Source: an uncultured Candidatus Saccharimonadales bacterium
GTDB taxonomy: Bacteria > Patescibacteriota > Saccharimonadia > UBA4664
Length of the DNA stretch: 64,000 nt
Reading direction: 5' to 3'
NCBI GenBank assembly: GCA_964609585.1
Contig: CAZSRA010000002.1
Span: forward strand, 46,820 to 110,819
Positions 36,893-59,086 of the stretch are shown here, piece by piece. Position 1 is the first letter of the stretch, and every line of letters begins with the position of its first letter. The notes below the pieces were generated by a model that was not told the DNA's origin, did no database searches, and saw nothing but the letters and a program-made list of their open reading frames with translations. The translations under genes and the position numbers were made by a program.

Positions 36893-38195
36893 GGTAATCT
36901 CCCTGTGGAAGTATCATAACAAACTTTGTGCCTTTTCCGAGCCTCGAAGTGACTTCAATGGTGCCTCCTTGGAGCTCGGCAATACGGCGCGCAAGGTACA
37001 GACCGAGTCCGGTACCTTCGACATTGCCGCGAATGGCATCGCTGGCGCGCTGGAAGCGATCGAAGATGCGTTCGAGCTCATCTGGGTGAATGCCCATGCC
37101 GGTATCGGCCACTTCAATGTACACTTCACCGTGCCTAGCATAGATGGAGAGGGTAATTTTGCCAAATTCGGGTGTATATTTGCGTGCGTTATCGAGCAGA
37201 TTGCCGATGGCCATATAGAGTTTTTCTTCATCGGCGAAGATCTTTAGGGGTCGGTTGGGTTGTTTGATGCTGAGCTGTTGATGTTTTTCGGTAATGGCCC
37301 CTTTTTGCTCGCCGGCAATGGCGCTTATGAGCGGACCAAGCTCAAACTCGGCCGAGCGCAAAATGAGGCGGCCGGCGTCGGCTCTAGCGACATTTAAAAG
37401 TTCTTCGATGATACCGAGGCCGCGTTCATTGCTCTCGATGGCCCGGTGCATGAAGTAGGTTTGGCGGTCGTTGAGCGGCCCAAAGTCGCCGGCTACGAGG
37501 GTAGATAGGATTGATTTTATGCCGGTGGCTGGAGTGCGCAGTTGATGTGACGCGAGTGAAACGAATTCGTCTTTGGCTCGGTCGAGGCGACGTTCAGATT
37601 GAATGGCGGTGAGATAAAGGTAGTACATGAAGATGGCCAAGGTGAGGGTGAGAATAAGAGTAAGCAAGCTAACATCGCGGGCAATGTCTGAAAGGAATTG
37701 GACATGATTGCGATCTCGGTTTAGCTGGGCAGTTTGGGTGGTTTCGATGCTTGCGGCGAGAGTTTGAACTTGGTCCATCGTGGCAGTAGTACTAGCTAAA
37801 CTGTCGGGAGTAACGGCGGAAGCTTTGAACTGGGTATTTACGAGAGTGCGCAGATTTTCAATATCTTGATGATAGCTGGCTGTTATGGTGTCTTGATCAA
37901 GCGACTGGAGCGAGGACCGCACGATACTGGCGGCTTTGACGAAGCGAGTTTGATAGCTGGGATTTCCCGTAATAACGTAACCGCGACGGTTACTCTCGGC
38001 GGCATTGAGCTGCAGCAAAAGTGATTGGAGCTGGGCCTTGGCGGTATTGTTGACCTGACCAGTCTGGCGGATGCTAGAAAGCAGCGCAAGCGCAGCTAAG
38101 GTGGCTGCTGTTGCAACGAACGAGACGGCGATTATGGCACCGAGGGTCATGAAGACGTTTCGGTTTGAATATTGGCGCAACTCCCTGGGCAGCAT
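36867..38195 (-). CDS. Sensor histidine kinase (periplasmic/TM sensor, HisKA, HATPase)
   Basis: N-terminal TM; H-box FVSLASHQLRTPATGIKS; LLDNARKYT; DTGMGI; GTGLGL. Confidence 0.85.
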   Translation of the reverse strand: MLPRELRQYSNRNVFMTLGAIIAVSFVATAATLAALALLSSIRQTGQVNNTAKAQLQSLLLQLNAAESNRRGYVITGNPSYQTRFVKAASIVRSSLQSLDQDTITASYHQDIENLRTLVNTQFKASAVTPDSLASTTATMDQVQTLAASIETTQTAQLNRDRNHVQFLSDIARDVSLLTLILTLTLAIFMYYLYLTAIQSERRLDRAKDEFVSLASHQLRTPATGIKSILSTLVAGDFGPLNDRQTYFMHRAIESNERGLGIIEELLNVARADAGRLILRSAEFELGPLISAIAGEQKGAITEKHQQLSIKQPNRPLKIFADEEKLYMAIGNLLDNARKYTPEFGKITLSIYARHGEVYIEVADTGMGIHPDELERIFDRFQRASDAIRGNVEGTGLGLYLARRIAELQGGTIEVTSRLGKGTKFVMILPQGDYRAAKSPSS

Positions 38196-40643: not shown

Positions 40644-41180
40644 AGTTATATTATAGCTTGGATTCGGCCAGGGCGGTTGCTTGAGATCAACAGCGCCGAC
40701 AGGATCAGCGAATGTTGCTGTATAAACAAAACACCCGGCCAGTGAGGTCGAGTGTTTTAGAGAATAATTCCGAAGAACCCGGAGCCAGCTCGTCATTTTG
40801 CCTTGCGGTTGTGCCTTGCGGTAGTACCTATCGGGTAAAAGAGTCTGGGGCGGATTGTCATCACGGAACTGTTAGTTCTGTGATCGCGTCTTTGGTGCAT
40901 TTTATGCAGGGGGTGAGCTAACCTTGTAAAGGTCAAATCTGGTGGAGCTTAGCTACCTAATTTTAGTTAGGCCTTTGGCTGTCAGATTTGAGGTTTTTAT
41001 CGCACTAGGTGCGATGGGTTGAGCATAAGCTCTTGTGCTCCGGAAAACTTCCGAAAAAGTCCTTTTGGGGCACATAGGTAAATTCAGATTAATGAATACA
41101 CTTGGTGTCACAAATGGCTTGGATAGATATTTTATTTTCAACCGTTGTGTAGCTTATCACGCTTTTGATTTATTGTCAAC
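40644..41180 (-). promoter_or_regulatory. Long (~500 nt) untranslated leader of the mgtA-like gene; candidate Mg2+-responsive riboswitch/attenuator (unverified)
   Basis: No credible ORF on either strand. The RNA-sense strand contains GGTTAGCTCACCCCCTGCATAAAATGCACCAAAGACGC (around 40925..40861), which shares GGUUAG and CCAAAGACGC with my recollection of the M-box consensus. A TTGACA box sits near 41170. Confidence 0.3.
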
Positions 41181-42254: not shown

Positions 42255-43475
42255 TTAGTGTTTGTCAGCGCTAGCGCAGATTGAGCAAGCCGAAACTGTG
42301 CGCGAATCTTTCAGCCAGAGCTTGGCGGCGTCCATAATGGGCAACATGTCGTAGTAGCCAACGAAATCGGCGGCGAGTCGGAGCCAGTGAGCAAGAAGTC
42401 CAAAGAGATGCTGCTTATGCCATTCAGCAAATGCCCAATTCTTCCCTACCGGCAAAACAGTGATGGGCTCGAAGGGCCTGTAGATGGAGCGGGGCTGACC
42501 GGCGAGTGCGCGCGGTAGGTCGCCTGCCACATATTTAGCATCATGAAGGGCGGTTTGGGCCATGCCCGAGAAGGGCGTGAGGGCGTTGTCGCCAATGACG
42601 TAAATGTCTTCTGATGCCTGCAAGTGATCGTCGACGGTGACTTTGCCGTTTTTGGCGAGATTGAAATGGGCGGCATTGGCGGCATAAAACGGGCTGGCGG
42701 CAACCCCGGACGTCCAGACAACGGTTTGGGTTTTAATGGAGCTATTTTCAAACTGGAGCTCGGTCGGGGTTTGGCTTTTAACAGCGGCGTTTAGTAGAAC
42801 TTGTACGCCGAGGGATTCGAGGCGGCGTTTAACGCGAGCCGAGACGACTTCGGTGTTGCGCGGTAAGAGTCGGGGCATCGCTTCTACGACGACGACTTTG
42901 TATTTGCGGGATTTAAGGTTGTGGAGCTCGGTAAGGTGATTCAGGTATTGGCCGAGGGAGGCGGCGAGCTCAACACCCGTCGGGCCACCACCGACCACAA
43001 CAAAGCTTTGCGTAGGATCATAATTTAGTACCTGATCATGCAGGCGCTGGCGGAACTGATTGACGCTTTCGGTGGATTTAATGCCCAAGGAGTGTTCGGC
43101 GAGGCCTTTGATGCCAAAATAGTTGGTGATATTGCCGAGAGCTAGTACGAGTTTGTCGTAGTGATAGCTGGTGTTACCGTCTGCGGACGTAACGGTGTGC
43201 TTTTCGGGATTAATAGTTGCGATGGTGTCTTGCACTACCTTGACCTTGGTGTGGCCAAAAATTTTACTCAAAGGGATGGCGGCAAGTGGATCGTAGCCAC
43301 CGGTTGCAGTGTGGTAGAACTGAGGATAGTAGGCCAGATGCGACAGGCTGGAGATGAGGGTGATGTCGTAATCTTCGTGGCCGGCGAGCCTGAGCGCCGT
43401 TTTCGCGCCGCCGAAACCACCACCGATGATGAGAATTTTGGGATTGGACTTTGGCATCTTAGCGTTGGCCCTCAC
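42255..43475 (-). CDS. ndh: Type II NADH:quinone oxidoreductase (NDH-2)
   Basis: ILIIGGGFGGAKTAL (FAD GxGxxG), a second dinucleotide motif VVVGGGPTGVELAA, 406 aa. Confidence 0.8.
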   Translation of the reverse strand: MRANAKMPKSNPKILIIGGGFGGAKTALRLAGHEDYDITLISSLSHLAYYPQFYHTATGGYDPLAAIPLSKIFGHTKVKVVQDTIATINPEKHTVTSADGNTSYHYDKLVLALGNITNYFGIKGLAEHSLGIKSTESVNQFRQRLHDQVLNYDPTQSFVVVGGGPTGVELAASLGQYLNHLTELHNLKSRKYKVVVVEAMPRLLPRNTEVVSARVKRRLESLGVQVLLNAAVKSQTPTELQFENSSIKTQTVVWTSGVAASPFYAANAAHFNLAKNGKVTVDDHLQASEDIYVIGDNALTPFSGMAQTALHDAKYVAGDLPRALAGQPRSIYRPFEPITVLPVGKNWAFAEWHKQHLFGLLAHWLRLAADFVGYYDMLPIMDAAKLWLKDSRTVSACSICASADKH

Positions 43476-43731
43476 GGGTGACCCTGGATAATGCGAGCCG
43501 GTAACGGGCGGAGACGGTGCCTACTATAATGACCGCGAGGTAGATGAGGCCCGTTGTACAGGTCTGGATCATATGGGCTGGATAGGCCGCCAGGAGGTAA
43601 AAACCCGTAGCTACGGTTGCTGCGGTGAAGCTATACGAAAGACGAAGCTTAGACTTTGATGGAAAGAAAAATGCGTAGGTAGTGGTAGCAATACTAGACA
43701 AGGCAATGACGACGTGTAAAAGGATAATCAT
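43459..43731 (-). CDS. Small membrane protein (hypothetical)
   Basis: 90 aa, three hydrophobic helices, lying between ndh and cyoE. Confidence 0.35.
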   Translation of the reverse strand: MIILLHVVIALSSIATTTYAFFFPSKSKLRLSYSFTAATVATGFYLLAAYPAHMIQTCTTGLIYLAVIIVGTVSARYRLALSRVTREGQR

Positions 43732-43752
43732 ATAGCGAGTATAGCGCAGTTT

Positions 43753-44613
43753 TTAAGGCAAGAATACGGAAACGGAGATCATGAAACTAAAGCTTGCAAT
43801 AACAATAAGTGAGAAGCGGAAAAGTTTGCGCGCCCAGATAGGATCGTCGGTGGTTTTCTTGAACCCATCAAGGCATAGTTTGAACCAATAGAGGCCCAGC
43901 CCGAGCATAACAATGGCGTAGGTGAATCCTGTGTACTTAAAGAGGGTTAAAAGATTTGTTGCCACGAGGAACCAAGCGATGTAGGTGATCATCTGCAGCT
44001 TGGCGGCGCGGATGCCGGACGTTACGGGCAAGACTGGGATACCGGCGGCGGCGTAATCGCGGAGCCGGTAGATTGCGATGGCGTAGAAGTGAGGCATTTG
44101 CCAGAGGACAAGGATGAGAAAGAGCAGGCTAGCGCCGAGGTCGAACCGGCCGGTGACGGCGGTATAGCCGACGACAATGGGCACCGCCCCAGAGACGCTG
44201 CCAACGAGCGTGCCGTAAACTGAGCGCCGTTTACTATAGCCATAGAGCAGGACGTAGAAAATAACCCCTGTAAGGGCCACTAAAACGGTGACGAGGTTGG
44301 TAAAGCAAATGAGAAGGCTGAAACCGATAAGGCCCAGTAGGCTTCCGTAGATGAGCGCGTTGGTCGGCGAAATGAGCCCGGTGACGAGGGCACGGTTTTT
44401 GGTACGAGCCATCATGCGGTCGATGCGACGGTCCATGACGTTATTGAAAACGCAGGACGCGGCGATGACGAGCGAGATGCCAATGAGGGTGGCAAGGAAT
44501 AGAAGGGGGTGAACGTGGCCGCGGGAGGCAAGCAAAAAGCCACCAATGGTGGTGATGGCATTGCCGCGGATGATACCGGGTTTGGTGAGGTAATAGTAGT
44601 CTTTTAGCTTCAT
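43753..44613 (-). CDS. cyoE: Protoheme IX farnesyltransferase (heme O synthase)
   Basis: UbiA-family motifs NNVMDRRIDRMMARTKNRAL and YSKRRSVYG; 286 aa; immediately downstream of cyoABCD and the polyprenyl synthase. Confidence 0.85.
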   Translation of the reverse strand: MKLKDYYYLTKPGIIRGNAITTIGGFLLASRGHVHPLLFLATLIGISLVIAASCVFNNVMDRRIDRMMARTKNRALVTGLISPTNALIYGSLLGLIGFSLLICFTNLVTVLVALTGVIFYVLLYGYSKRRSVYGTLVGSVSGAVPIVVGYTAVTGRFDLGASLLFLILVLWQMPHFYAIAIYRLRDYAAAGIPVLPVTSGIRAAKLQMITYIAWFLVATNLLTLFKYTGFTYAIVMLGLGLYWFKLCLDGFKKTTDDPIWARKLFRFSLIVIASFSFMISVSVFLP

Positions 44614-44615
44614 GG

Positions 44616-45512
44616 TTATTTTTGCCTGCTTATGGTGAAGTCGGCGAGACCTGTGAGGAGGGTTTTAAGGTAAGGATCGGCGGTGAGTTTGGGGACGAGA
44701 GCCTTGGCCTCGCGGACATAGGTTTTTGCCTGAGCCTGAGAATGGGCGCGCGCGCCGCTATCCTCAAAAATCTGCCGGATGGCTTGGTGTTGCTCAGGAG
44801 TGATTTTGCCTTGCCCGTAAGTAGCGGTTAGAATTTGTCGCTGGGCGGGGGCGGCGTGAGCTAGGGCATAGGTGATGAGGAGCGTGGTTTTATTTTCGGT
44901 GATGTCAGATGTGGCGTCTTTGCCCGTAACGGCCTCCTGACCAAACACGCCCAGAATGTCGTCTTGGATCTGGAAGGCTAGGCCAACATTTTCACCGAAT
45001 TGCTTAAGTATGGCAAGACTAGCATCGGTGGCGCCACCCAAAACCGCGCCGGCTTGGAGCGGCCCAACAATGGTATAGGTGGCGGTTTTGAGCTTTTGCA
45101 TTAAGATGATGTCTTCGGCGCGGCGAGCCTCATAGGGACTTGAGAGCTTTATATCGAGCATTTGGCCACCGATCGTATCCAGAATAATTTGCGAGAAAAG
45201 CGAGAGAGCGCGGTTCTTGGCTTCAGCTTGGAATTTGCTATCGGCTAGGAGTTTGGTGGCCAAAAAAAAACTCACATCGCCAAGACACAAGGCTTGTGAC
45301 TGACCATAATGGTCGCCGCCGAGCGCCTCGTGGAGACTTGGGTGGCCACGACGAAGGGGGCTTTTGTCGATTATGTCGTCATGGACGAGCAGGCCGGCAT
45401 GGAGAATTTCGAAAGCGGCTGCCGGGGTGAGAATGGCACGATTTTCGGGCTCACCGGTGAGCTGATAGCCAAGCTTTACGAGGGTACCACGCAGGGCTTT
45501 GCCGCCAGACAC
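44616..45512 (-). CDS. trans-Polyprenyl diphosphate synthase (FPP/GGPP synthase-like); true N-terminus probably upstream (to ~45655) but lacks a canonical start codon
   Basis: FARM LLVHDDIIDKSPLRRG and SARM FQIQDDILGVFG. In-frame upstream sequence (PPQAAFQTYLVRAAGEVAGELNRVLDSWRIDINAKTGQQLASPFEHFADG) is clearly homologous to polyprenyl synthase N-termini, yet contains no ATG/GTG/TTG back to the stop at ~45660. Confidence 0.8.
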   Translation of the reverse strand: MSGGKALRGTLVKLGYQLTGEPENRAILTPAAAFEILHAGLLVHDDIIDKSPLRRGHPSLHEALGGDHYGQSQALCLGDVSFFLATKLLADSKFQAEAKNRALSLFSQIILDTIGGQMLDIKLSSPYEARRAEDIILMQKLKTATYTIVGPLQAGAVLGGATDASLAILKQFGENVGLAFQIQDDILGVFGQEAVTGKDATSDITENKTTLLITYALAHAAPAQRQILTATYGQGKITPEQHQAIRQIFEDSGARAHSQAQAKTYVREAKALVPKLTADPYLKTLLTGLADFTISRQK

Positions 45513-45664
45513 GCCATCCGCGAAATGCTCAAAGGGACTGGCGAGCTGCTGGCCGGTTTTGGCATTTATATCGATGCGCCAAGAATCTAGGACGCGATTT
45601 AACTCACCTGCGACTTCGCCAGCAGCGCGAACGAGATAAGTTTGAAAGGCAGCCTGAGGAGGGG

Positions 45665-46033
45665 TTATTTTGATATCCCTTCATCTTTCATGACGGCGGC
45701 ATTTGTATCGGCGGGCGAGCGCATGTTGTAATTGAGGTTAGCCATGATCCAGAGTGATCCAAAGACGAGAGTAACGAGCACAACGAGCATGAAGAGGAAG
45801 ATCATGAGATTCCAGCGAGGCTTGGACTCCTGGCCGAGATGCAGGAAGAAGAATAATTGGATAATGAGCTGGACAACGGCCAAGACTACAATGGCTGTTA
45901 TGAGCGTACGACCCGAAAATAGATGACGCGTAACGCTGAAATAGGCAGCGAGCGTGAGGCCAACGGAGAGCACAAAACCCGTGATATATGAGGCTAGACT
46001 GCCGTGACTGGTTTCGACTTTCGAGTGCTTCAT
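45665..46033 (-). CDS. cyoD: Cytochrome bo3 ubiquinol oxidase subunit IV
   Basis: [32 protein letters not shown]..., three TM. The ATG overlaps the cyoC stop (ATGA). The ORF track's longer start at 46186 lies inside cyoC. Confidence 0.75.
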
Positions 46034-46602
46034 GATTGCAGGGCTCCGAGAAGATAAACAATGGTGAAGATAAAGATCCAGATGATGTCGAGGAAGTGCC
46101 AGAAGAGGCTCAGAAGCGTGAGACGCCTGGCAACGGCTGAATCTAGGCCGCGTCGCAGGATTTGAACCATCATAACGGCCATCCATAGGAGGCCGGTAGT
46201 GATGTGGAGGCCATGAGTACCAACGAGGGTGAAGAAGGCGGAAAGGAAGCCGCTGCGCTGCCAGCTATTGCCTTCTGAGGCGAGGTGGCTGAATTCGGTG
46301 ACTTCCATGGTGAGGAAGGCAATGCCCAGTAGGAACGTTAGGGCAAACCAGATGAGAACCTGATTTTGTTTGCCGCGGCGTACAGCGAGGGTGGCGAGGC
46401 CGGCGGTGAAGCTGCTCGTGAGCAGGATGAGTGTCTCGGTGAGCACAAACGGTAGGCTGAACAATTCGCGAGCAGAGGGTCCACCGAAGGTGTTTCCATG
46501 TAGTACAGCATAGGTCGCAAAGAGAGCGCCAAAGAGGATACAGTCGGTCATGAGGTAGACCCAGAAACCGAAGGTAGTTTTGGTAGTGGCTTCGGTGCTC
46601 AT
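46030..46602 (-). CDS. cyoC: Cytochrome bo3 ubiquinol oxidase subunit III
   Basis: 190 aa, five TM; [22 protein letters not shown]...[13 protein letters not shown] is typical of CyoC/Cox3. Confidence 0.9.
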
Positions 46603-48593
46603 ACTCCCCCTTCCATTTTTTCGACCTCGGCGGCGGTAATAGTGTATTCGGTATCGTCGTCAGTGGTGCGGATAATGATGGTCGTGAGCACGCCAATAAG
46701 GCCGATGACGGCTAGCCACCAAATGTGCCAGATTACAGCGAAGCCGGCGAGAAAAGCGAAGCCGGCGATGAAGATGCCCATGGGGCTATTTTTGGGCATT
46801 TCGATGTCTTCATATTTTGGCTTGGAGGAGGCTTTGATGGCAGATTTTTGCTTGGCTTCCCAGAAAGGGTCGCGGTCGTGGACTTCCGTGAGGACGGCGT
46901 AATTATATAGGGGTGCTGGCGAGGTAGTAGACCACTCGAGGGTACGGCCGTTCCACGGATCCCCGGTGGTGTCGAGATTGTCCCTTCGCTGCCAGACGCT
47001 AACGATCATTTGGAGAATTTGGAAGCCGATGCCAGCACCGATTACGAGCACGCCAACCCCAGCCACAATGAACAGTCCCTGCCAGCCCATGGATGGGTCG
47101 TAATGGTCGAGGCGACGGGCAGCACCCATGAGACCGAGGATATAGAGCGGAATAAAGGCCAGCAAGAAGCCTATAAACCAGCACCAAAAGGCATAGCGAC
47201 CGAGGCGCTCATTGAGCTTGAAACCGAAGATTTTCGGGAACCAATAGGTAATGCCAGCAAAATAGCCAAAGATGACGCCGCCAATAATCATGTTGTGAAA
47301 GTGGGCCACGAGAAAGAGGGTGTTGTGAACCTGGAAATCGATGGCGGGCACACTCATGAGCACGCCGGCCATACCGCCGATAGTGAAGGTAACGACAAAG
47401 GCGAGGAACCAGAGCATGGGGGTGGCGAAATTGATGCGGCCGCGGTACATGGTGAAGAGCCAGTTGAAGACTTTTACGCCGGTGGGCACGGCAATAACGG
47501 CGGTCATGATGCCAAAGAAGGCGTTGACGTCGGCACCCGCGCCCATGGTGAAGAAATGGTGCAACCAGACGATGAATGAGAGGAACGTGATAGCACCAAG
47601 CGCCCACACCATTGAGGTGTAGCCAAAGAGTCGTTTGTGTGAGTAGGTTGCGACAACCTCAGAGAATACTCCAAAGGCGGGAAGCACGAGGATGTAAACC
47701 TCGGGGTGACCCCAGGCCCAAATGAGATTCACATACATCATGGCGTTACCACCGAAACCGGAAGTGAAGAAATGCATCCCCAGGGTGCGATCGAGCGCGA
47801 GCATGGCGAGTGTGGCAGTGAGGATGGGGAAGGCGAAGGCGACCAGAGCCATGGCGTTTAGGACGGACCAGACGAAGAGTGGCATTTTCATGAGCGTCAT
47901 ACCAGGGCGGCGGAGCTTTAGGATGGTAACGAGGAAGTTTAAACCTGAGAGGAGGCTGCCGATGCCGGCGATTTGCAGGCTCCAGATCCAATAATCGACA
48001 CCAACGCCAGGACTGTAGGCGAGCTCAGACAGCGGCGGATACGCAAGCCAGCCGGTGGCGGCAAACTCCCCGACTACGAGCGAGAGGTTTATGAGTATGC
48101 CACCGGCGACATAGAGCCAGAAACTGGCTGAATTCATGAAGGGAAACGCAACGTCGCGGGCACCGATTTGCAGGGGGACGATGAGGTTAATGAGGCCAAA
48201 CATGAGGCCCATGGCCACGAAGAAGATCATGATGGTGCCGTGAGCTGAGAAGACTTGCTGGAAGGTATCGGCGGAAACGATGCCGTGGGAACTGCCGACA
48301 GATAGGATTTGCTGGGCACGCATCATGCCGGCATCGGCGGCACCGCGCAGGAGCATGAGAAAGGCAACGGCGATGTACATGACGCCGATTTTCTTGGGGT
48401 CGAGTGAGGTGAGCCATTCGGTCCAGAGCCATTTTACGAGCCCGATAGCCCAGCCCCAACGCTTGAGGTATGTTAGGAGAGCGGCAACAGCAATGGCACC
48501 GAGAGGCGCGCCAATGAGCAGAGAATTTACGGCGAGCCCGGTGATGCCGTCATGATGCAACGCGTTTAGCGTGAGGTTTCCAAGGGGTTTCAT
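46599..48593 (-). CDS. cyoB: Cytochrome bo3 ubiquinol oxidase subunit I (heme-copper oxidase)
   Basis: 664 aa, near-collinear with E. coli CyoB ([15 protein letters not shown]...[19 protein letters not shown]...WLHHFFTMG...HFHNMIIGG). Confidence 0.95.
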
Positions 48594-49462
48594 GGGGCGA
48601 GCATTCCGGGCATCATGTATTTCATTATGACGTCATTATACAGATTTGGATCGGTAAGAGCGTAGGTGGCAGCCGGATTATTTTCGCTGGGTTTTGCCAG
48701 CTGGTCGTAAGTGGTGAGGCTCAACGGTCGGCGGGTGTGGCCTGCGGCCTTAACCCACTGATTGAAATCGGCCTCGGTAGTGGATTTGGCTGTGAATTTC
48801 ATGCCTGCAAAGCCTTTGCCGCTGATATTTACGGACGAACCAGCGTAACTGCCGGGAGTGTCAGCCATGAGATGGAGGCTCGTGTTCATACCGGGCATGG
48901 CGTAAATTTGGCCTCCGAGCTGGGGAATCCAGAATGAGTTCATGGGTGCATCGGCCGTGATTTCGAAATTTACTGGAGTGCCCGCAGGAAATTCGACTAG
49001 GTTAACGCTAGCGATTTGCTGTTCGGGGTAAATAAAGAGCCATTTCCACTGCAAGGCGACGACTTGAATGGTGATCGGTTTCGTGGTTGAGGCGAGGGCT
49101 TTGTACGGATCGAGCTCATGGGAGCTGCGCCAGGTAATTATCGATAGCGCAATGATGAGAGCGCAAGGAATCCCCCACCATAAGGCTTCGAGGGCATGGT
49201 TGTGGTCCCAATCGGGGGTGTATTTGGCCTTGGTGTTGCTAGCCCGGTAGCGCCAGGCGATGACGAAGGTGAGGACGAAGACCGGGATCACGACGATGAG
49301 CATGAGAAGAGTGGCGACGATGAGCAGGCTGAATTCTTTGCGCGCTATGATGCCCTGCGGGTTCAAGATAGCAATGGTGTGGCCGTGGAGTAATGACCAC
49401 CCAAGAAGAATAGCCGCAAGTACGAGCAAGGGCGGAAGCGCGAAGAGGAGTTTTTTGCTCAT
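48590..49462 (-). CDS. cyoA: Cytochrome bo3 ubiquinol oxidase subunit II (quinol oxidase type, no CuA site)
   Basis: Two N-terminal TM; [22 protein letters not shown], characteristic of CyoA. Confidence 0.9.
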
Positions 49463-51873: not shown

Positions 51874-53259
51874 TTACTTATCTTTGGCAGACGCGGTTTT
51901 GGCGGCTACTTGAGCAACAAGCGGCAGTTTGAAGCCAAAGGTACTCCCCTCTCCCAACGTTGATTCAAAGATGATTTCGCCGCCCTGGTCTTCGATGACA
52001 CGCTTGGCAAGGTACAGACCGAGGCCGGTGCCATCGGGGCGGACGGATTTGGCGTTGTCGGCACGGTAAAACTTGGCAAAGAGTTTGGCTTTCTCCGCGG
52101 GCGGGACACCCATGCCAGTGTCAATGACTTTGAGTATGGCTTGGCGGCCGGCGCGTTCCAAAGTGACTTTGACGCTGCCTTTTTCTGTGTAGTAGATGGC
52201 GTTATCGATGAAATTCATGATAACCTGGCTGGTTTTACTTTCGTCGAGGGGAATGAGGGGAAGGGGTTTTTCAGGTGGAGTGAACTCGAGGGCGAGATTT
52301 TTGCGCTCAGCCGAAGATCTCAACTGCAGGATTTGGGCCTTAATGAGGCCGGCAAGATCAGTAGGTTGCTGGATAATGTTGAACCGGCCGGCGTTGAGGC
52401 GCGATACGTTGAGGAGGTCGCTCGCCATACTTACGAGGCGTTCGGAGGATTCAAGTGCAATGCTGACATATTCACGTTGGCCGACGCTGAGGTTGCCTTT
52501 GTCCTCTTCGAGAGCCATGGAGAGATAGCCGGTAACAGCTGTAAGCGGCGTGCCAAGCTGATGGGAAGCCATGGAAATGAAGTCATCTTTGGCTTTATCG
52601 AGGACTTTGAGTTTTTGATTGGCGGTGCGCAGGTGGGCGGTTGCTTCGGTAACACGCTCCTGAAGCGTGATGTTGAATCGTTCGATTTCGCGGTTGCTAA
52701 GCCAAAATACTACAGTAATTATGATGAGGGTGAGCGAGAAACCAACGGCGTCGTTGGGGCCGGCGGGAATTTTCATCCAGCTGGAATCAAAACGAAGCGT
52801 ACCATTTTGCTGGAGCGCGCTTAAAACTATTAAACCAACCGAGACCAAGAGGGCAAAAAAGACACTCGTCCTCGTACCAAGAAGGACGGAAGCCATAACC
52901 AACACCAGTGCTAGTAGCAGGACCCCTTGGGCGAGGAAGATACCAAAACTAATCATTATGTAAAACGACAGCATGAAAAATATGCCGACAAGGGCATAGG
53001 CAGCGGGCACAAAATACCCTTTGCGAGAAAGCACCCAGAGTCCGGCAAAGAAGCTAACCTGGAGGGCGGCAAACAACGGAGGCTCGCCTGCATAGCTGGA
53101 GCCTAGGCCTATGCTCCGAACTATAACAACCACAAAAGCTAAGATACCAGCTATGGTGGAGCTGGCGAGTAAGATATTGAGAATAAACTCACGTCTCCGT
53201 CCATCGACGTTCTTGGATTTGGGATCAATGAGTAGTTTGCGCCAGTTAGAGAAATGCAT
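51874..53259 (-). CDS. Sensor histidine kinase (multi-TM N-terminus), paralogue of 20887..23067
   Basis: H-box FISMASHQLGTPLTAVTGY (Gly where the paralogue has Arg); NFIDNAIYYT; DTGMGV; GTGLGL. The C-terminal ~250 aa are about 60% identical to the kinase at 20887. Confidence 0.85.
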   Translation of the reverse strand: MHFSNWRKLLIDPKSKNVDGRRREFILNILLASSTIAGILAFVVVIVRSIGLGSSYAGEPPLFAALQVSFFAGLWVLSRKGYFVPAAYALVGIFFMLSFYIMISFGIFLAQGVLLLALVLVMASVLLGTRTSVFFALLVSVGLIVLSALQQNGTLRFDSSWMKIPAGPNDAVGFSLTLIIITVVFWLSNREIERFNITLQERVTEATAHLRTANQKLKVLDKAKDDFISMASHQLGTPLTAVTGYLSMALEEDKGNLSVGQREYVSIALESSERLVSMASDLLNVSRLNAGRFNIIQQPTDLAGLIKAQILQLRSSAERKNLALEFTPPEKPLPLIPLDESKTSQVIMNFIDNAIYYTEKGSVKVTLERAGRQAILKVIDTGMGVPPAEKAKLFAKFYRADNAKSVRPDGTGLGLYLAKRVIEDQGGEIIFESTLGEGSTFGFKLPLVAQVAAKTASAKDK

Positions 53260-53274
53260 GAGGATAATTGGATT

Positions 53275-53309
53275 ATAAAAAACTGGGCGGGTTTCGCCCA
53301 GTTTTTTTT
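53275..53309. terminator. Bidirectional intrinsic terminator; sits 16 nt upstream of the kinase start codon
   Basis: aaaaaaCTGGGCGggtttCGCCCAGtttttttt: perfect 7-bp stem with A and T tracts. Confidence 0.6.
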
Positions 53310-53312
53310 CTG

Positions 53313-53417
53313 TTATGACCAGTACGCTGCAGAACTTTCGCCGACAGCAACTTTGATCATAGCGTCGCTGCTGCGTGAGCTCTTGTCGGTCAGGGCTTTC
53401 TTGATGATCTCGCTCAT
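53313..53417 (-). CDS. Small protein, 34 aa (MSEIIKKALTDKSSRSSDAMIKVAVGESSAAYWS) with consensus SD and own terminator
   Basis: AAAGGAGGT lies 8 nt upstream of ATG 53417, and the stop is followed directly by the terminator at 53275..53309. The ORF track shows a longer 91-aa version in the same frame. Confidence 0.45.
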   Translation of the reverse strand: MSEIIKKALTDKSSRSSDAMIKVAVGESSAAYWS

Positions 53418-53634
53418 GTTTTTTACCTCCTTTCTTTGTAGATTCACCTCGGGCCCCAAGAGGCTTTTGGTGGCGAATGTAAGCTCAAATCGTGGTGATT
53501 TGAGGCTGTTAAAGAGAAGGTGGATCAGGTGATTCAAGTAGACCAGAATTACTCTGATTGTAGCATGAAAGTGGCTTTTGCAAGACACTTATGCTTATCT
53601 AGTAAATTGATTATTTTTGGCATAACGTTTAAAC

Positions 53635-55566
53635 ATGAAGCGTTTTGGTGAATTAGCCAATTTGATAGCGAGCGAGCAGCAACGTGACGGGTCGTTTATG
53701 AGTTATTCGGTCGCCCTGGGGGCTGTTTTTGGATCGGATTCTAAAACCTATCAGACGACGTTTATGACGGCTCTCATTTTGGGTGCGATTGCAGGTATCG
53801 ACGACGAGACTCTGGAGGTTGTACAGCAGCGAGCGGCAGATTGGCTACTCGCTCAGCGGGGACCGGAGTGGTCATTTAACTATTGGTCGCACGAGGAACC
53901 GGAGGTCAAGGTACGATCCTATCCAGATGATTGGGACGATACAAGCTGCGCGATTTCAGCCTTGTCGCGCGTGCGGCCCGAAGTTATTACGGGCGGCGTC
54001 CTTGGGCATATCGTGAAGCTTTTGACAGGCACCGAAGAGCAGGAAGGCGGCCCGTATCGGACATGGATTGTGGGCGAGGAGGCGCCGAAGCATTGGCATG
54101 ATGTGGATATTGCCGTGAATGCCAATATTGCGTATTTATTGAAGCTTCACGAAGTGCAATTGCCAAATTTGGAGACGCTTGTAGACACACGGATAGCGGC
54201 CGGAGAACTCGTGTCGCCGTACTATCCGACATCCGCGCCGATTGAATATTTTGTGTCGCGATGGTATCGGGGCGCTCGCTGGGAGCAGCTGCGGGAGCGG
54301 ATTTTGGCGCGGAAGCGACGAGGACGATGGGGCGGTGCGCTAGAGACGGCGCTGGCGGTGAGTAGTTTACTCAACCTGGGCGCAGAACCCGATGGGGTGG
54401 CCGGGGCAGTGAAGTGGCTGCGAAACCTGGAGCCGGCGGAGCTAAAGGCTGGGGCATTTTGTATGGATCCCGCGACTGAAGGCAAGCCGTATGTGGCGGG
54501 GGCAAGGGCTTTGACCGCGGCGCTGGTTATGGAGGCAATTTGGAACTATGACCAGGCAATAAAACGAGCCGAAGGGTCGCTGAAGCATGAGGTCGGTACG
54601 TCAGCCAATAAGCTTGATGAGTTAATCGTCCAGACGGTAATGGCGCGATTTGAGCAGGCGGGCAAAACAGTTTATGCGGATGCCCAGACTATGAAAGATA
54701 GACTGCTCGGTGGAACGGCGGCGGCTCAGATCACGGCTCTCCCCTTTTTGTTTCGGCGGGCTCTTGGTCGGCGCGGGGCGAATATCACGGACAAGCAAGT
54801 TGTACTTTGGGGAATGGTGAGTTTTTATGGATGGATCGCGTATACCGTTTATGATGATTTTTTGGATGAGGAAGGCAAGCCACAGCTGCTACCGGTGGCC
54901 AATGTTGCCCTTCGAGAGCTGGTTTTGCTGGTGCAACATGAAGCCAATCGAGTAGACGGACTCGGAGAGATAGCCTGGGGGGTCCTGGATGGCCAAGAGG
55001 CGGCCAATGCCTGGGAGGTCACCTATTGCCGAGTAGCGCGTCAAAGTGACCTGAGGCGGGTAGCGGTACCAGACTTTGGGAACTTGGCGGCGCTGGCAGA
55101 GCGCTCAATGGGTCACGCTTTGGGATGTGTGGCGCTGACACTGGCGCTAGGATACGCTCCGACAAGCATGGAAGTGAAAACGGTACGATCATTCTTCTAT
55201 CATTTCCTGATTGCCCGGCAATTAGGAGATGACCTGGCGGATTGGAAAGTGGACCTGGAGAAGGGACAGATCAATGCAGTAGGAGCGTGGCTGCTAAGCG
55301 AAGCGGGTCAGCAAGATGAGAGCGTGGCTAAGCTGTATCACCGACTGGAACGAATATTATGGGAAAAAACGGCGGTGGCGGTAAAGCAACGAATGACGTT
55401 GGAGCTCAATGAAGCCCGAGCGCAACTGAAGCACATGAATTTTATCGAAGAGCCAAAAATACTGCTGGGACTCCTCGCGCCGATTGAGGCGGATATCGAA
55501 GCAACTGAGCGTAAACGCCAGCAAACTGCTGAATTTCTACAGTCTTACGAAGCGAAAAATTTATAG
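53635..55566 (+). CDS. Two-domain isoprenoid-enzyme-like protein: N-terminal alpha/alpha-toroid terpene-cyclase-like domain (SHC-type YPDxDDT motif) fused to a C-terminal class I terpene-synthase/trans-IPPS-like domain (DDxxD and DDxxDxxxD)
   Basis: N-terminal region: QW-like repeats (EQQRDGSF, AQRGPEWSFNYW, EEQEGGPYRTW) and SYPDDWDDTSCAISAL, which mirrors the squalene-hopene cyclase catalytic context YPDVDDTAVVVWAL. C-terminal region: WIAYTVYDDFLDEEG and, ~130 aa later, IARQLGDDLADWKVDLEKG. Confidence 0.55.
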   Translation: MKRFGELANLIASEQQRDGSFMSYSVALGAVFGSDSKTYQTTFMTALILGAIAGIDDETLEVVQQRAADWLLAQRGPEWSFNYWSHEEPEVKVRSYPDDWDDTSCAISALSRVRPEVITGGVLGHIVKLLTGTEEQEGGPYRTWIVGEEAPKHWHDVDIAVNANIAYLLKLHEVQLPNLETLVDTRIAAGELVSPYYPTSAPIEYFVSRWYRGARWEQLRERILARKRRGRWGGALETALAVSSLLNLGAEPDGVAGAVKWLRNLEPAELKAGAFCMDPATEGKPYVAGARALTAALVMEAIWNYDQAIKRAEGSLKHEVGTSANKLDELIVQTVMARFEQAGKTVYADAQTMKDRLLGGTAAAQITALPFLFRRALGRRGANITDKQVVLWGMVSFYGWIAYTVYDDFLDEEGKPQLLPVANVALRELVLLVQHEANRVDGLGEIAWGVLDGQEAANAWEVTYCRVARQSDLRRVAVPDFGNLAALAERSMGHALGCVALTLALGYAPTSMEVKTVRSFFYHFLIARQLGDDLADWKVDLEKGQINAVGAWLLSEAGQQDESVAKLYHRLERILWEKTAVAVKQRMTLELNEARAQLKHMNFIEEPKILLGLLAPIEADIEATERKRQQTAEFLQSYEAKNL

Positions 55567-55574
55567 CCGAAGCG

Positions 55575-55973
55575 CTAGGCCGCCGGGGGAATTTCGTTGC
55601 GCGTGTAGCCAGCCAGAATACCGCGGACAATCTCATCGACTTGGCCGGGTTTGTTTTCGCTTTTTACGATGTAGCGTACAGCGCCGAGCTCGAGAGCAGC
55701 TTGGACATCGTTCGAACCGGCGAGGTTGGTAAGTACGACGACGGGGATTTTTTTGGTTTCTGGGTCGGCTTTGAGGCGCTTTAAGACTTCAAGTCCGTTG
55801 AGTTTGGGCATCATAATGTCGAGCAAAACGAGATCAGGTTTAAAGGAGCGGGTTTTGTCGAGGCCAATTTCGCCGTTGGCGGCTACCTCCACCTCATAGC
55901 TGCTCGAGGAAAACACGATTTGATACATGCGCGACAGTAGGGCGTCGTCTTCGATGATGAGAATTTTAGCCAC
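55575..55973 (-). CDS. Response regulator, receiver domain only
   Basis: KILIIEDD...LVLLDIMMP...VVVLTN...YIVK; 132 aa. Confidence 0.85.
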   Translation of the reverse strand: MAKILIIEDDALLSRMYQIVFSSSSYEVEVAANGEIGLDKTRSFKPDLVLLDIMMPKLNGLEVLKRLKADPETKKIPVVVLTNLAGSNDVQAALELGAVRYIVKSENKPGQVDEIVRGILAGYTRNEIPPAA

Positions 55974-56014: not shown

Positions 56015-56392
56015 TTACTTTTTAGACTTTTTTGAAAGGATGTCTTTTATTTCGGCTACGAGCTCTTTGGGTGTGAATTTTGATTTGGCTAAATAGTTTT
56101 CGGCTCCAAGTTCCATGGCTTCTTTATAAAGCTCCGGGGATGAAAGGTTGCTAAAAACGACAACTTTGGTTTCGGGATGGTTTTTGGCGTCGAAGGTGCG
56201 CAAGAATTCGAGACCTCCGATGTTGGCCATGAGTAGATCCAGCAGAATGAGATCCGGCTTTAATTCCTTGAGTATATCCAGGGCGTCCTGGCCGTCTGAG
56301 GCCACGGTGACATCGTAACCTTCGCCGGCAAGGGCGGTTTGGAAAATTTTTCGAATATTCGGATAGTCTTCGACAATTAATATTTTAGCCAC
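56015..56392 (-). CDS. Response regulator, receiver domain only
   Basis: KILIVEDYP...LILLDLLMA...VVVFSN...YLAK; 125 aa. Confidence 0.85.
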   Translation of the reverse strand: MAKILIVEDYPNIRKIFQTALAGEGYDVTVASDGQDALDILKELKPDLILLDLLMANIGGLEFLRTFDAKNHPETKVVVFSNLSSPELYKEAMELGAENYLAKSKFTPKELVAEIKDILSKKSKK

Positions 56393-56397
56393 GCGCG

Positions 56398-58191
56398 CTA
56401 CTCCTTTATGTGCTTGGGTAATATGACGGTGAACGTACTGCCCCGACCGAGCTCAGATGCGACTTGAATGCGACCACGGTGCAAGTCAACAATCTGTTTA
56501 GCTAAGTATAGCCCTAAACCGCTGCCACTGGCGCCGGTTTTTTCGGCATTGGCAGCGCGGGAGAACCGTTTGAAGAGGTTGGGAAGGTCTTTGGCCGCGA
56601 TGCCGATGCCGTCATCTTTGACCTGAATCATAAGTTGATGAGCGGTTTGTTTTAGCTTTAATTCAACTTTACCACCCTCAGGAGAATATTTGCTGGCGTT
56701 GGTGAGGAGGTTGTCGAATACCATTTGGAGCTTGGCTTTGTCGGCGGTAATGGTGAGGCTTTTGGGTGCCTCGATGTGGACGACTTGGCGGCGGCCGCGG
56801 ATGAGCTCGTGTTGTTCGGCCACGGCGCTGCGGAGGAGACTAGCGATGTCCACTGGGGCGTATTCGAGCACGATCTGGCCAGCATCGAGTTTGGCTACAT
56901 CGAGCATGTCGTCAATGATTTTGAGCTCGTGCTCGTTTTCGGCGAAGGCTTGAGTGAGGTTTTCAGTTTGCTCGGCTGTGAGGGTGCCGTTGTAGCCTTC
57001 GAGCAAGAGCGACAACAGACCTTTGACGGCGGTAGCGGGAGTGCGCAACTGGTGCGACGCCAGTGATACGAATTCAGATTTGAGGCGGTCGACTTCTCTT
57101 TCTTTGGTGATATCACGGATGACGTCAATGCCGCCAATGATGTTGCCTTTGAGAATAATAGGCGTGGCGGTGACGGAAACGGGGAACAGCCGGTTGTCAG
57201 CGGAGCGGTAGAAATAGTCGGCACTGGAGACGCTGCGTCCGGTTTGGAGGGCTTTTTGCATGGGGCGATGCGGCCTGGGGATGAGTCGGCCGGTCTGATC
57301 TTCAAGCGCGATGGTCGAATAAAAATGGCGGCCTTTGATATCGTCTAGGCTAGCACCGGTGAGGCGGGCAAATTCGCGGTTGGCAAAGAAAATGCGGCCG
57401 ACTTTGTTCATGGCTACGACCCCTTCTCCGATGCTTGAGAGCAAAGCTTCGTCTTCGGCTTGGCTCTTTTCGGTTTCGGCAAGGCGATCACGGAGGAGTT
57501 TGGTTTGGCTGGCGACGCGGCTTTCGAGTTGCTCAGTTTTTTGAGCCAGTTTGCGTACGAGCATTTGGTGGACGGTGAGATCGCGGATGATGGCAGTACT
57601 GAAGGTTTGGGCGCCGGTCTGCCAGGTGGCAAACGACAACTCGACGGGGAATTTATGGCCGGTCCGATGTTTGGCCGTGGCCTCAATGAGCTTGCCGAGC
57701 TGATTGCTGCCGAGACTTGGTGGCGGCGGGAGGGTACGGAGGTAGTTTGGATCAAGGTCCGGGATGAGAAGGGTTAGCGATTTGCCAGTGGTACCAGCGA
57801 GCGGCCGTCCGAAGATAATTTCGGCAGCGCGGTTCATGTAGGAAATGGCGCCGTGTTTGTCGATGGTGAGGATGGCGTCATTGGCGGTGTCGGCGACGGC
57901 CCTAAATTTGGTCTCACTGCCGTAGAGTTCGTTTGTGCGGGCGGCGACGATGGTTTCGAGGTCAATGTTGAGTTGCTTTAGCTGGCCGAGTTTCTCGCGA
58001 ATTACTTCGAGCATAAGCTGCACACCGACATAGAGCTCGCTAAATTCATCGTGAGGGCCGGTGAGCGGAACGTCGCGCGTGAAGTCCCCTACTGCGGCCT
58101 GAGCCAAAACGGGCATAAGTGCTTCGAGACGTTTTTTTACTTGCGCTTTGTAGGGTGATTTATCTGGAATTGGGGCGACTTGTTTAACCAT
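56398..58191 (-). CDS. Soluble sensor histidine kinase with tandem PAS domains
   Basis: No TM segment. PAS-like regions (AVADTANDAILTIDKHGAISYMNRAAEIIFG; LSSIGEGVVAMNKVGRIFFANREFARLTG); H-box FVSLASHQLRTPATAVKG; LLTNASKYS; DDGIGI; GSGLGL. Confidence 0.85.
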   Translation of the reverse strand: MVKQVAPIPDKSPYKAQVKKRLEALMPVLAQAAVGDFTRDVPLTGPHDEFSELYVGVQLMLEVIREKLGQLKQLNIDLETIVAARTNELYGSETKFRAVADTANDAILTIDKHGAISYMNRAAEIIFGRPLAGTTGKSLTLLIPDLDPNYLRTLPPPPSLGSNQLGKLIEATAKHRTGHKFPVELSFATWQTGAQTFSTAIIRDLTVHQMLVRKLAQKTEQLESRVASQTKLLRDRLAETEKSQAEDEALLSSIGEGVVAMNKVGRIFFANREFARLTGASLDDIKGRHFYSTIALEDQTGRLIPRPHRPMQKALQTGRSVSSADYFYRSADNRLFPVSVTATPIILKGNIIGGIDVIRDITKEREVDRLKSEFVSLASHQLRTPATAVKGLLSLLLEGYNGTLTAEQTENLTQAFAENEHELKIIDDMLDVAKLDAGQIVLEYAPVDIASLLRSAVAEQHELIRGRRQVVHIEAPKSLTITADKAKLQMVFDNLLTNASKYSPEGGKVELKLKQTAHQLMIQVKDDGIGIAAKDLPNLFKRFSRAANAEKTGASGSGLGLYLAKQIVDLHRGRIQVASELGRGSTFTVILPKHIKE

Positions 58192-58564
58192 GCTGTGTCG
58201 TTCCCATTTTTAAGAATGCCATGGCCTCTTTTCGGCTGCCAAAAAATTTAACCTTGGAGGTTTGGCCGGACGCCCTGATCACGAGACTTACTACGTATCT
58301 TAGGATAGGGTCGCTGCTGTAGATTGCGGCTCGGTCATATTTGAGAGTCCGGAGACCTTCGGCAGCGGCCCTGCGAGCCGTGGTGTCCTGTTTGCCCAGT
58401 TTTGTGAGGTCAATGAGCGCAAAGACAGGGCGTTTTTCGTCCTTTAGCTGTTTGGTTAAAACGGCAAGTTTTTCAGTCATGCGAGTAACGGTCTCGCCAG
58501 TTTGGTCACCCACATGTTGATTGTAGATGAAACCGCTTTTGCTTAGATAGACGCGATTGGGCAT
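58184..58564 (-). CDS. STAS/SpoIIAA-like small protein (tentative), first gene of the PAS-kinase operon
   Basis: 126 aa; ...RPVFALIDLTKLGKQDTTARRAAAEGL...KVKFFGSRKEAMAFLK resembles the anti-sigma-antagonist/STAS fold. Overlaps the kinase start by 8 nt. Confidence 0.35.
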   Translation of the reverse strand: MPNRVYLSKSGFIYNQHVGDQTGETVTRMTEKLAVLTKQLKDEKRPVFALIDLTKLGKQDTTARRAAAEGLRTLKYDRAAIYSSDPILRYVVSLVIRASGQTSKVKFFGSRKEAMAFLKMGTTQHG

Positions 58565-58705: not shown

Positions 58706-59086
58706 ATGACCAAGATCTTGCTCGTTGAAGATTACGAAAGCATTCGTAATGTTTATTTTTTTGCCCTGACCGAAGAAGGATTTTCAGTTGATACCGCTGG
58801 GAGTGGGGCCGAAGCGCTCCGACTGGTGGCGAAATCAGTATATGATTTGATTTGTCTAGATATGGTTATGCTCCAGTATAGTGGGCTTGAGTTTTTAGAG
58901 AAGTTTCGAGCTCAGCAGGCCAACGTTAAAACAAAAGTGATAGTGCTGAGCAATATTGATAGCCCGGCAATCGTTGAACGCGCAAAGGCTTTGGGAGCTG
59001 TGAAATATCTTATTAAGGCACACTATACGCCGAAGCAACTAGCTGCGATGATTCGCGAAATACTCAGCGCTCCCTCGGGTCAGTAA
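58706..59086 (+). CDS. Response regulator, receiver domain only
   Basis: KILLVEDYE...LICLDMVML...VIVLSN...YLIK; 126 aa. Confidence 0.85.
   Translation: MTKILLVEDYESIRNVYFFALTEEGFSVDTAGSGAEALRLVAKSVYDLICLDMVMLQYSGLEFLEKFRAQQANVKTKVIVLSNIDSPAIVERAKALGAVKYLIKAHYTPKQLAAMIREILSAPSGQ

Follow-up and report, generated by a model that had tools for sequence, protein, structure and literature searches.

At positions 53635..55566 on the plus strand of a 64-kb stretch of DNA from an uncultured Candidatus Saccharimonadales bacterium (contig CAZSRA010000002.1, positions 46,820 to 110,819; hereafter the window) lies a gene that joins a class II terpene-cyclase beta domain to a prenyltransferase domain resembling trans-isoprenyl diphosphate synthases (IPPS). 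An earlier note on this DNA had singled the gene out, and translation confirmed its open reading frame (ORF), which starts with ATG and specifies a protein of 643 amino acids. The strings that the note had quoted are all present in the protein, SYPDDWDDTSCAISAL at residues 95–110, YDDFLDEEG at residues 406–414 and GDDLADWKVDLEKG at residues 531–544, and the QW-type repeats it had mentioned correspond to QQRDGSF at residue 15, for which the family consensus is QxxDGSF. Its two Asp-rich motifs are likewise real, at a distance of 125 residues (D407 to D532) instead of the roughly 130 it had given. What it overlooked is the decisive context, namely that a conserved gene for a small Trp-containing peptide and an orthologous histidine kinase gene lie beside the fusion gene.

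Searches of Pfam, NCBIfam and PDB sequences with the window protein alone gave no usable match. An AlphaFold2 model of the full protein, built from the family alignment, had a mean predicted local distance difference test score (pLDDT) of 94.4 and a predicted template modelling score (pTM) of 0.85, with a low-confidence linker at residues 316–319 between the two modelled domains. AlphaFold and Foldseek, which the earlier note had proposed as a check, returned an alpha/alpha toroid for the N-terminal half and an all-helical isoprenoid-synthase fold for the C-terminal half. The Pfam comparison it had also proposed was less productive, as the SQHop_cyclase and Prenyltrans models do not match the window protein itself and find few of its relatives (SQHop_cyclase_C, SQHop_cyclase_N and Prenyltrans match 10, 4 and 1, respectively, of the 62 family members aligned below).

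Contrary to the expectation that such a beta-alpha arrangement would be uncommon in bacteria, the protein belongs to a very large family that is apparently restricted to Patescibacteria. At E≤1e-30 an exhaustive HMMER search over 1.84 billion representatives, clustered at 50% identity, returned 1,537 clusters, a number that rises to 3,627 at E≤1e-3; the best 150 matches are all full-length family members, and many full-length homologs are about 640 residues long. A relative is encoded in at least 301 species representatives of GTDB. Homologs that carry a source name come from metagenome-assembled genomes of Patescibacteria, Parcubacteria and Saccharimonas, the exceptions being one 'Vitreimonas' and one generic 'bacterium', and the titles of the 80 loci that we studied among the 301 species representatives cover Saccharimonadia, Microgenomates, Parcubacteria, Doudnabacteria and CPR2. 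No relative was found by tblastn against plasmids. We aligned 62 sequences, each 31–59% identical to the window protein. Among the columns that never vary in this alignment are P97, D99, D101, Y197, D407, D411, Q529, D532, D536, W537 and D540, and a conservation of at least 90% is reached by D102, T103, D408 and D533; because invariant columns fall within the motifs of both domains across this set, we regard those motifs as being under strong selection. Many records carrying the gene cassette described below bear the label 'uncultured Gammaproteobacteria', 'Vitreimonas sp.', 'Methylomirabilota', 'Sulfotelmatobacter', 'Bacillota' or 'Dormiibacterota' (loci L013, L015, L020, L022, L029, L059, L073 and L084 among them); these labels are probably wrong, as the sequences cluster with Patescibacteria homologs. 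A few family members (P0003, P0030 and P0103) have a precomputed match to Pfam PF28380, possibly a new model in which part of the fusion family is represented.

The N-terminal domain (residues 1–314; 53635..54576, plus strand) has the alpha/alpha toroid of a class II terpene cyclase of the monodomain type (TC-beta). The family profile matched the cyclase domain of AsDMS, a bacterial drimenol synthase, at E 1e-16 and fungal AstC at 5e-4, and its match to squalene-hopene cyclase was weak. Solved class II cyclases superpose on this domain better than other toroids do, and Foldseek concurs; the glycoside-hydrolase and epimerase toroids, which would have pointed to the unrelated kind of toroid that the earlier note had held up as the alternative, score 19.5 or less. 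When aligned to AsDMS by hidden Markov model (HMM), the family segment PYPDDLDDT pairs with FPDDLDTT, so that D99 corresponds to D331 and D101 to D333, and the family segment SPYYP pairs with TRYYP, so that Y197 corresponds to Y427. In the window protein the general-acid motif of DxDD(T) type is DWDDT (D99–T103; 53929..53943, plus strand) and the tyrosines aligned with Y426/Y427 are Y196–Y197 (54220..54225, plus strand). Both D99 and D101 are present in 62 of 62 sequences, D102 in 61 and T103 in 60, while Y197 is found in all 62 and Y196 in 59. In AsDMS, D333 is the proton donor, Y427 is hydrogen-bonded to D333, and mutation of any of D331, D333 or Y427 kills the enzyme (PMC12365925).

The diphosphate of farnesyl diphosphate (FPP) is salt-bridged in AsDMS by R378, R380, R425 and R513, arginines that are not fully conserved among drimenol synthases either (PMC12365925). 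All four are replaced in the window family, where the aligned residues are W154 (59/62), D156 (61/62), P195 (49/62) and a variable position, so that the AsDMS-type diphosphate clamp is missing. Because the catalytic residues are kept and these arginines are not, the domain looks like a competent class II cyclase with an altered head-group pocket. Fold and motif together support the assignment of the N-terminal half as a protonation-type cyclase toroid, as the earlier note had held, with its activity being predicted. The domain shares its acid motif and Tyr partner with AsDMS, MstE, 8pak/8paj and 6ij1, and like them it is a single beta domain with no beta-gamma pair. It differs from AsDMS in the acid motif, which is a canonical DxDDT in the window protein and DxDTT in AsDMS, and in its partner, which is a C-terminal IPPS-like domain here and an N-terminal HAD phosphatase in AsDMS (HAD-TC-beta). 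The substrates of MstE-type cyclases are prenylated aromatic compounds (PMC12365925).

The C-terminal domain (residues 319–643; 54589..55563, plus strand), which we propose to be a peptide-Trp prenyltransferase, has the all-helical fold of trans-isoprenyl diphosphate synthases, and modelled alone it reached a pLDDT of 95.4 and a pTM of 0.92. Its top structural matches are bona fide chain-elongating synthases, and the matches also include the prenyltransferase domain of fungal PvCPS, with a score of 20.6, as well as Ord1, an indole prenyltransferase (20.1), and MoeN5 (18.0). Outside the IPPS-type prenyltransferases, tetraprenyl-beta-curcumene synthase comes first (15.3), and class I cyclases score 15.1 or less. 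We therefore set aside a class I cyclase as a candidate for this domain, since such enzymes rank below the IPPS-type matches. The earlier note had left two options for this half; the isoprenoid-synthase fold with the two motifs rich in aspartate, first and second (FARM and SARM), of trans-isopentenyl diphosphate (IPP) synthases is, judged on the model, the right one, and the class I terpene cyclase is the one that lacks support. The FARM-like motif is DDFLD (D407–D411; 54853..54867, plus strand) and the SARM-like motif is QLGDDLADWKVD (Q529–D540; 55219..55254, plus strand), and the fold match would place the two on facing helices. The second motif reads DDxxDxxxD; its acidic residues stand at i, i+4 and i+8 in the manner of an NSE/DTE-like triad, but the residues are non-canonical. 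One helical turn upstream of it, three residues before D532, Q529 is invariant (62/62); a Gln at this place has a role in Trp-prenylating trans-isoprenyl diphosphate synthase (IDS)-like enzymes (PMC10853753 and PMC13290415).

The sites that hold IPP in a canonical synthase appear to be missing from this domain. We aligned the family to 19 canonical IPPS encoded beside family members (hhalign, local mode), and although the score is weak (E 0.034) the register is consistent with the FARM and SARM motifs. In this alignment YDDFLDxEG pairs with HDDIIDxxxxRRG, such that a four-residue deletion takes out the RR of the RRG that follows the FARM in true IPPS, and IARQLNDDAHD-WxxDLxxGxI pairs with IAFQIxDDxLG(11 residues including GK)DIxEGKxT, such that the GK loop and the second Lys are lost; no conserved basic residue is found in the family over the GGKxxR region. 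In IPPS the basic residues of GGKxxR, RRG and GK bind IPP and diphosphates. Because they are lost here, the domain likely binds and ionises an allylic diphosphate without condensing it with IPP. The polyprenyl_synt model PF00348 matches neither the window protein at E≤10 nor any of the 62 members at E≤0.01, and one of the 62 members reaches Terpene_syn_C_2, at E 0.0026. Having seemingly lost the basic motifs for IPP, the domain probably does not elongate chains, nor is it likely to be a class I cyclase of the classical kind, and by fold, motifs and context it looks like a prenyl transferase of the ComQ/ChrPC type that acts on a peptide tryptophan.

The proposed peptide substrate is specified by a small ORF at 53313..53417 on the minus strand, which encodes 34 amino acids (MSEIIKKALTDKSSRSSDAMIKVAVGESSAAYWS) that comprise a conserved leader and, next to the C-terminus, a Trp, and which is preceded by a Shine-Dalgarno sequence, AAGGAGG (53426..53432), 8 nt upstream of the ATG. 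A homologous ORF sits between the regulator and kinase genes elsewhere, and in the annotation of some contigs it appears as a nameless product of 37–41 amino acids. Across the family the peptides are 34–44 residues long and follow the consensus M-(K/S)-x-L-(I/L)-K-K-(I/V)-L-T-D-K-x-x-R-N, about 15 variable residues, usually P-W, and 1–6 variable residues. The 65 aligned peptides agree in their leader and differ in core and tail, apart from a Trp that stands 1–6 residues from the C-terminus in 65 of 65 and is preceded by Pro in 53. An HMM of the peptide picked out exactly one ORF per locus from 9,209 six-frame ORFs, with no weaker matches, and recovered the window copy at E 3e-11. Nucleotide differences among the homologs number 895, 581 and 1,502 at codon positions 1, 2 and 3, with the third position dominating. 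No Pfam or NCBIfam family matched the peptides.

The peptide gene is one member of a conserved cassette. An orthologous histidine kinase gene lies immediately upstream of the fusion gene, on the same strand and often overlapping it, in 68 of 71 informative loci, and is divergent from it in two of the 71; an OmpR-type response regulator gene precedes the kinase in 50 of 62 loci. The usual order on one strand is regulator, peptide, kinase, enzyme, and a canonical IPPS gene follows immediately downstream in 10 of 73 loci and is found anywhere in the locus in 18 of 80. No other family recurs in the 80 loci. Specifically, we looked for a dedicated exporter or protease that could belong to the cassette, and none recurs across loci. 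In the window the kinase ortholog (461 amino acids; 51874..53259, minus strand) has about 5–6 transmembrane helices joined by short loops in its first 195 residues, followed by HisKA and HATPase_c domains. The window's peptide and kinase genes are divergent from the fusion gene, a layout shared with its closest relatives (L006 and L007). The earlier description of the fusion gene as monocistronic accordingly holds in the window, where both neighbours are on the opposite strand, and is atypical of the family. A canonical polyprenyl diphosphate synthase gene at 44616..45512 (minus strand), whose product is 43% identical to the IPPS encoded directly after the fusion gene in locus L005, likely supplies the prenyl donor.

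The literature already describes a prenyltransferase and a cyclase fused into one enzyme whose substrates are ribosomal peptides (Hubrich et al., Chem 2024, as summarised in PMC13290415). According to that summary, in the bifunctional 'PC' maturases NctPC and ChrPC a P domain, ABBA-type in NctPC and trans-IDS-like in ChrPC, prenylates a peptide Trp with donors of up to C20, after which a fused MstE-like class II cyclase domain cyclises the C10–C20 prenyl chain (PMC13290415). The window protein shares with ChrPC and NctPC the union of a prenyltransferase and an MstE-like monodomain class II cyclase in one polypeptide, with ChrPC the trans-IDS-like character of the prenyltransferase, and with both, if our proposal is right, a ribosomal-peptide Trp as acceptor. 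In the window protein the cyclase comes before the prenyltransferase, and the likeness to ChrPC is drawn from the published description. The precursor is very short, 34–44 amino acids, and matches no known precursor family. The window family is moreover tied to a histidine kinase and response regulator and apparently limited to Patescibacteria, and none of these features figures in the accessible description of the PC maturases (PMC13290415).

The protein unites the domains found in ChrPC; a Trp-peptide is encoded next to it, its IPP site is apparently disabled, and its cyclase pocket lacks the diphosphate clamp. We therefore propose, by analogy and on balance of probability, that it is a bifunctional maturase of a ribosomally synthesised and post-translationally modified peptide (RiPP), one that would attach a prenyl group to the Trp of the peptide and afterwards cyclise the attached chain. 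This would make it a prenyl-processing enzyme, the second of the two options that the earlier note had offered and the one nearest to the reading we favour; the bifunctional isoprenoid cyclase that it had named first is less favoured. We infer the chemical steps, the length of the donor chain, the order of the reactions and the signalling role as follows, the chemistry being predicted. The C-terminal domain would bind an allylic C15 or C20 prenyl diphosphate supplied by the canonical IPPS, with Mg2+ held by D407/D411 and D532/D536/D540 coordinating the donor. It would ionise this donor and move the prenyl group onto the indole of the invariant Trp, which is the reaction of ComQ, PalQ, StheQ and the P domain of ChrPC. 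In the N-terminal domain D101, held by Y197, would protonate the distal double bond and so cyclise the attached chain, in parallel with the C domains of NctPC and ChrPC. The terpene-peptide would be processed and released, and the adjoining polytopic kinase would sense the product and signal to the OmpR-type regulator, a logic like that of ComQXPA or Agr built from parts orthologous to neither. That the modified peptide serves as a pheromone is a possibility that we rate as falling somewhat short of probable.

A precedent for such a cassette is ComQXPA, which comprises an enzyme of IPPS fold, a small peptide with a near-C-terminal Trp, a polytopic kinase and a regulator (PMC4008528). ComQ-type enzymes are structurally of the IPPS fold, the Trp is second from the end of the peptide in StheQ/StheX (preprint 10.64898/2026.08.29.745113), and PalQ modifies a C-terminal Trp (PMC10853753). 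The Patescibacteria cassette resembles ComQXPA, PalQ/PalX and StheQ/StheX in bringing together enzyme, near-C-terminal-Trp precursor, polytopic histidine kinase and response regulator, and it resembles them further in having a variable mature-peptide region and in encoding no dedicated exporter. The adjacency of these genes on one strand, as in ComQXPA, is typical of the family and holds only in part in the window, where the peptide and kinase genes are divergent from the fusion gene and an OmpR-type regulator is missing. Each part nevertheless differs from its ComQXPA counterpart: the kinase has a HisKA domain (PF00512) and about 5–6 transmembrane helices, whereas ComP has HisKA_3 and 8–10; the regulator is OmpR-type (Trans_reg_C), whereas ComA is GerE/LuxR-type; the peptide is 34–44 amino acids long with no match to PF05952, whereas ComX has 52–73; and the enzyme has a full second Asp-rich motif and an extra class II cyclase, whereas ComQ and StheQ have a pseudo-SARM, and does not match PF00348, the Pfam family of ComQ. 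The gene order is also different (regulator-X-kinase-enzyme, as against Q-X-P-A). In its chemical logic, Trp farnesylation followed by protonation-initiated cyclisation, the proposal has a parallel in the drimentine pathway. There DmtB farnesylates the Trp indole of diketopiperazines and DmtC cyclises the chain to a drimane by protonation; the two are separate enzymes, DmtB having an alpha fold and DmtC being a membrane cyclase of another fold, and their substrate is a tRNA-derived cyclodipeptide.

Several observations weigh against a peptide maturase and have to be set beside those in its favour. In sequence the C-terminal domain shows no similarity that could be detected to ComQ/PF00348 or any other Pfam or NCBIfam family; its second Asp-rich motif is fully intact, unlike that of ComQ and StheQ, and fits a classical three-metal ionising synthase; the Gln upstream of the SARM is shared with ordinary IPPS (FQxxDDxxD) and so does not discriminate; and the IPP site is judged lost from a weak alignment, as noted. 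On the side of the cyclase, D156 and D158, which replace AsDMS arginines, could bind a diphosphate through Mg2+, as in SsDMS, and the domain may thus use a prenyl-diphosphate substrate. The cassette has neither an exporter nor a leader protease linked to it, and in the window it is rearranged, with the peptide and kinase genes divergent and no ortholog of the OmpR-type regulator within the 64 kb. An alternative is an enzyme in which the C-terminal domain elongates a chain to FPP or geranylgeranyl diphosphate (GGPP) and the N-terminal domain cyclises it by protonation to a free terpenoid resembling drimenyl or copalyl diphosphate. Such a product could be a membrane lipid or metabolite, and the adjacent two-component system would do no more than regulate how it is made. 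The fungal bifunctional copalyl diphosphate synthases PvCPS and PfCPS join a class II beta-gamma part to a C-terminal GGPP synthase, and PvCPS has a beta-gamma didomain with a true chain-elongating prenyltransferase that keeps its IPP motifs and releases a free diterpene diphosphate; the window protein has a single beta domain, has lost those motifs and is linked to a peptide gene. Both of its Asp-rich motifs are intact and its best structural matches are genuine chain-elongating synthases, as a PvCPS-like activity would predict, but we consider this activity unlikely, given that the IPP-holding motifs (GGKxxR, RRG after the FARM and GK after the SARM) are absent or deleted, that PF00348 finds none of the 62 members, that a second elongase would be redundant where a canonical IPPS is already encoded, as it is directly downstream in 10 of 73 loci and also in the genome of the window, that the cyclase domain has no AsDMS-type diphosphate clamp, and that the universally linked Trp-peptide gene would go unexplained.

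That peptide gene and the kinase would be equally unexplained if the protein were a beta-alpha terpene synthase, in which the class II domain cyclises GGPP to a bicyclic allylic diphosphate and the C-terminal domain, acting as a class I enzyme, turns this into a free hydrocarbon or alcohol. The DDxxD and DDxxDxxxD motifs, the latter with NSE/DTE-like spacing, would suit such an enzyme, as would the single touch on Terpene_syn_C_2 (one of 62 members, E 0.0026) and the apparent loss of the IPP site, which is also seen in terpene synthases derived from IDS. Insect IDS-like terpene synthases, for example, are IDS-derived and have lost the IPP site. The canonical (N,D)Dxx(S,T)xxxE motif is however absent, class I cyclases stand below IPPS-type enzymes in the fold ranking, and the role published for this domain combination (PMC13290415) is peptide modification; we accordingly hold a terpene synthase of this kind to be quite improbable. 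An acceptor other than the peptide has also to be weighed, whether a lipid, a quinone-like aromatic or free tryptophan, as with Ord1, and in that case the peptide would not be a substrate but would act in an accessory way to regulate the kinase, much as some small proteins are known to modulate histidine kinases. The use of prenylated aromatics by MstE-type cyclases (PMC12365925) likewise speaks for it. We doubt this explanation, since the sole invariant residue of the peptide core is a near-C-terminal Trp, the hallmark of ComX, PalX and StheX, since a leader followed by a variable core is the layout of a RiPP precursor, and since no recurrent biosynthetic gene in the locus would make another acceptor. 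Finally, the tight coupling of the fusion gene to the kinase gene, which it often overlaps, could mean that the protein has no catalytic role and serves the kinase as an accessory or sensor partner, such as an isoprenoid-binding module; with the catalytic acid, its Tyr partner and the metal-binding Asp residues invariant at 31–59% identity, there is very little to recommend this. A maturase of the linked Trp-peptide thus remains the reading that we prefer.

Between the stop codon of the window's peptide gene and the start of the kinase gene lies a G+C-rich hairpin flanked by runs of A and T (53277..53307), a possible terminator or attenuator. The sequence of this hairpin, CTGGGCG...CGCCCAG with A/T runs, is conserved in Saccharimonadia-type loci (L007, L009, L010 and L054) and missing from most other lineages, and in that clade it may set the ratio of peptide to kinase transcript. 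We considered a terminator after the peptide gene as a general feature and rejected it, as a similar hairpin is present in only 14 of 68 loci, mostly from Saccharimonadia. In two Doudnabacteria loci (L003 and L017), an RVT_1 reverse transcriptase gene is found together with a bAvd-like gene 3–4 kb upstream of the cassette (L003:3337-4712), a pairing characteristic of diversity-generating retroelements; this locus is without an upstream OmpR-type regulator.

The two-component-rich surroundings described in the earlier note are borne out by histidine kinase and receiver genes around the fusion gene. Convergent with it are two receiver-only response regulators (55575..55973 and 56015..56392, minus strand) whose link to the cassette is uncertain; a weak receiver-domain match occurs at the same position in the closest relatives (L006–L008). 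The run continues to the right with a PAS kinase (56398..58191, minus strand), an overlapping ORF of 126 amino acids (58184..58564, minus strand) and another receiver-only regulator (58706..59086, plus strand), and on the other side a CHASE3-domain histidine kinase (36867..38195, minus strand) adjoins a P-type cation ATPase (38211..40796, minus strand). The cluster of polyprenyl synthase and 'cyoE' genes was also correctly placed, about 8–9 kb upstream (44616..45512 and 43753..44613, both on the minus strand), 'cyoE' being heme O synthase of the UbiA family. These genes form part of an aerobic respiratory module (42255..49462, minus strand) that comprises an NDH-2-like flavoprotein, the UbiA-family heme O synthase, the polyprenyl synthase and cyo-type quinol oxidase subunits IV, I and II, and the same module lies beside the cassette in the relative L006 (1-5872). 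GC skew, (G-C)/(G+C), is positive in every 2-kb bin of the 64 kb (0.01–0.27), and its cumulative value climbs monotonically with no switch point inside the window.

The kind of enzyme that we propose, a prenyltransferase-cyclase RiPP maturase, is already published. What appears new is the breadth of the family within Patescibacteria and its apparent restriction to them, the very short precursor family and the systematic coupling to a two-component system; the literature that we searched contained no description of the cassette, of terpene cyclases or prenylated peptides in Patescibacteria or of their peptide signalling, and offered only generic gene-cluster surveys. There are practical consequences for annotation. 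Genes of the candidate phyla radiation (CPR) that are labelled 'prenyltransferase/squalene oxidase repeat protein', or that fall in 'terpene' clusters, should be read alongside the unannotated 100-nt ORF nearby, an ORF frequently overlooked by gene callers or given no name.

The genomes of Patescibacteria are tiny, and no function is assigned to most of the lineage-specific genes that these bacteria conserve. A five-gene cassette of regulator, peptide, kinase, fused enzyme and sometimes IPPS, found in at least 301 species representatives and accounting for about 1,500 clusters at 50% identity, is therefore one of the few conserved 'luxury' modules in these bacteria. We put forward, tentatively, that they possess a phylum-wide and independently evolved pheromone system, in which a 34–44-residue peptide would be prenylated at its near-C-terminal Trp, the chain cyclised to a polycyclic terpene by the same fused enzyme, and the product recognised as an extracellular ligand by the co-encoded polytopic histidine kinase. 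If true, the recent class of cyclised-terpene ribosomal peptides would be greatly enlarged, and compact two-domain biocatalysts with very short substrates would be at hand. Patescibacteria, ultra-small episymbionts, would then have their first assigned system of cell-cell signalling and their first RiPP class, in the form of an analogue of ComQXPA with a cyclic-terpene signal, and the cassette offers a testable idea for how these episymbionts may signal to one another or to their hosts.

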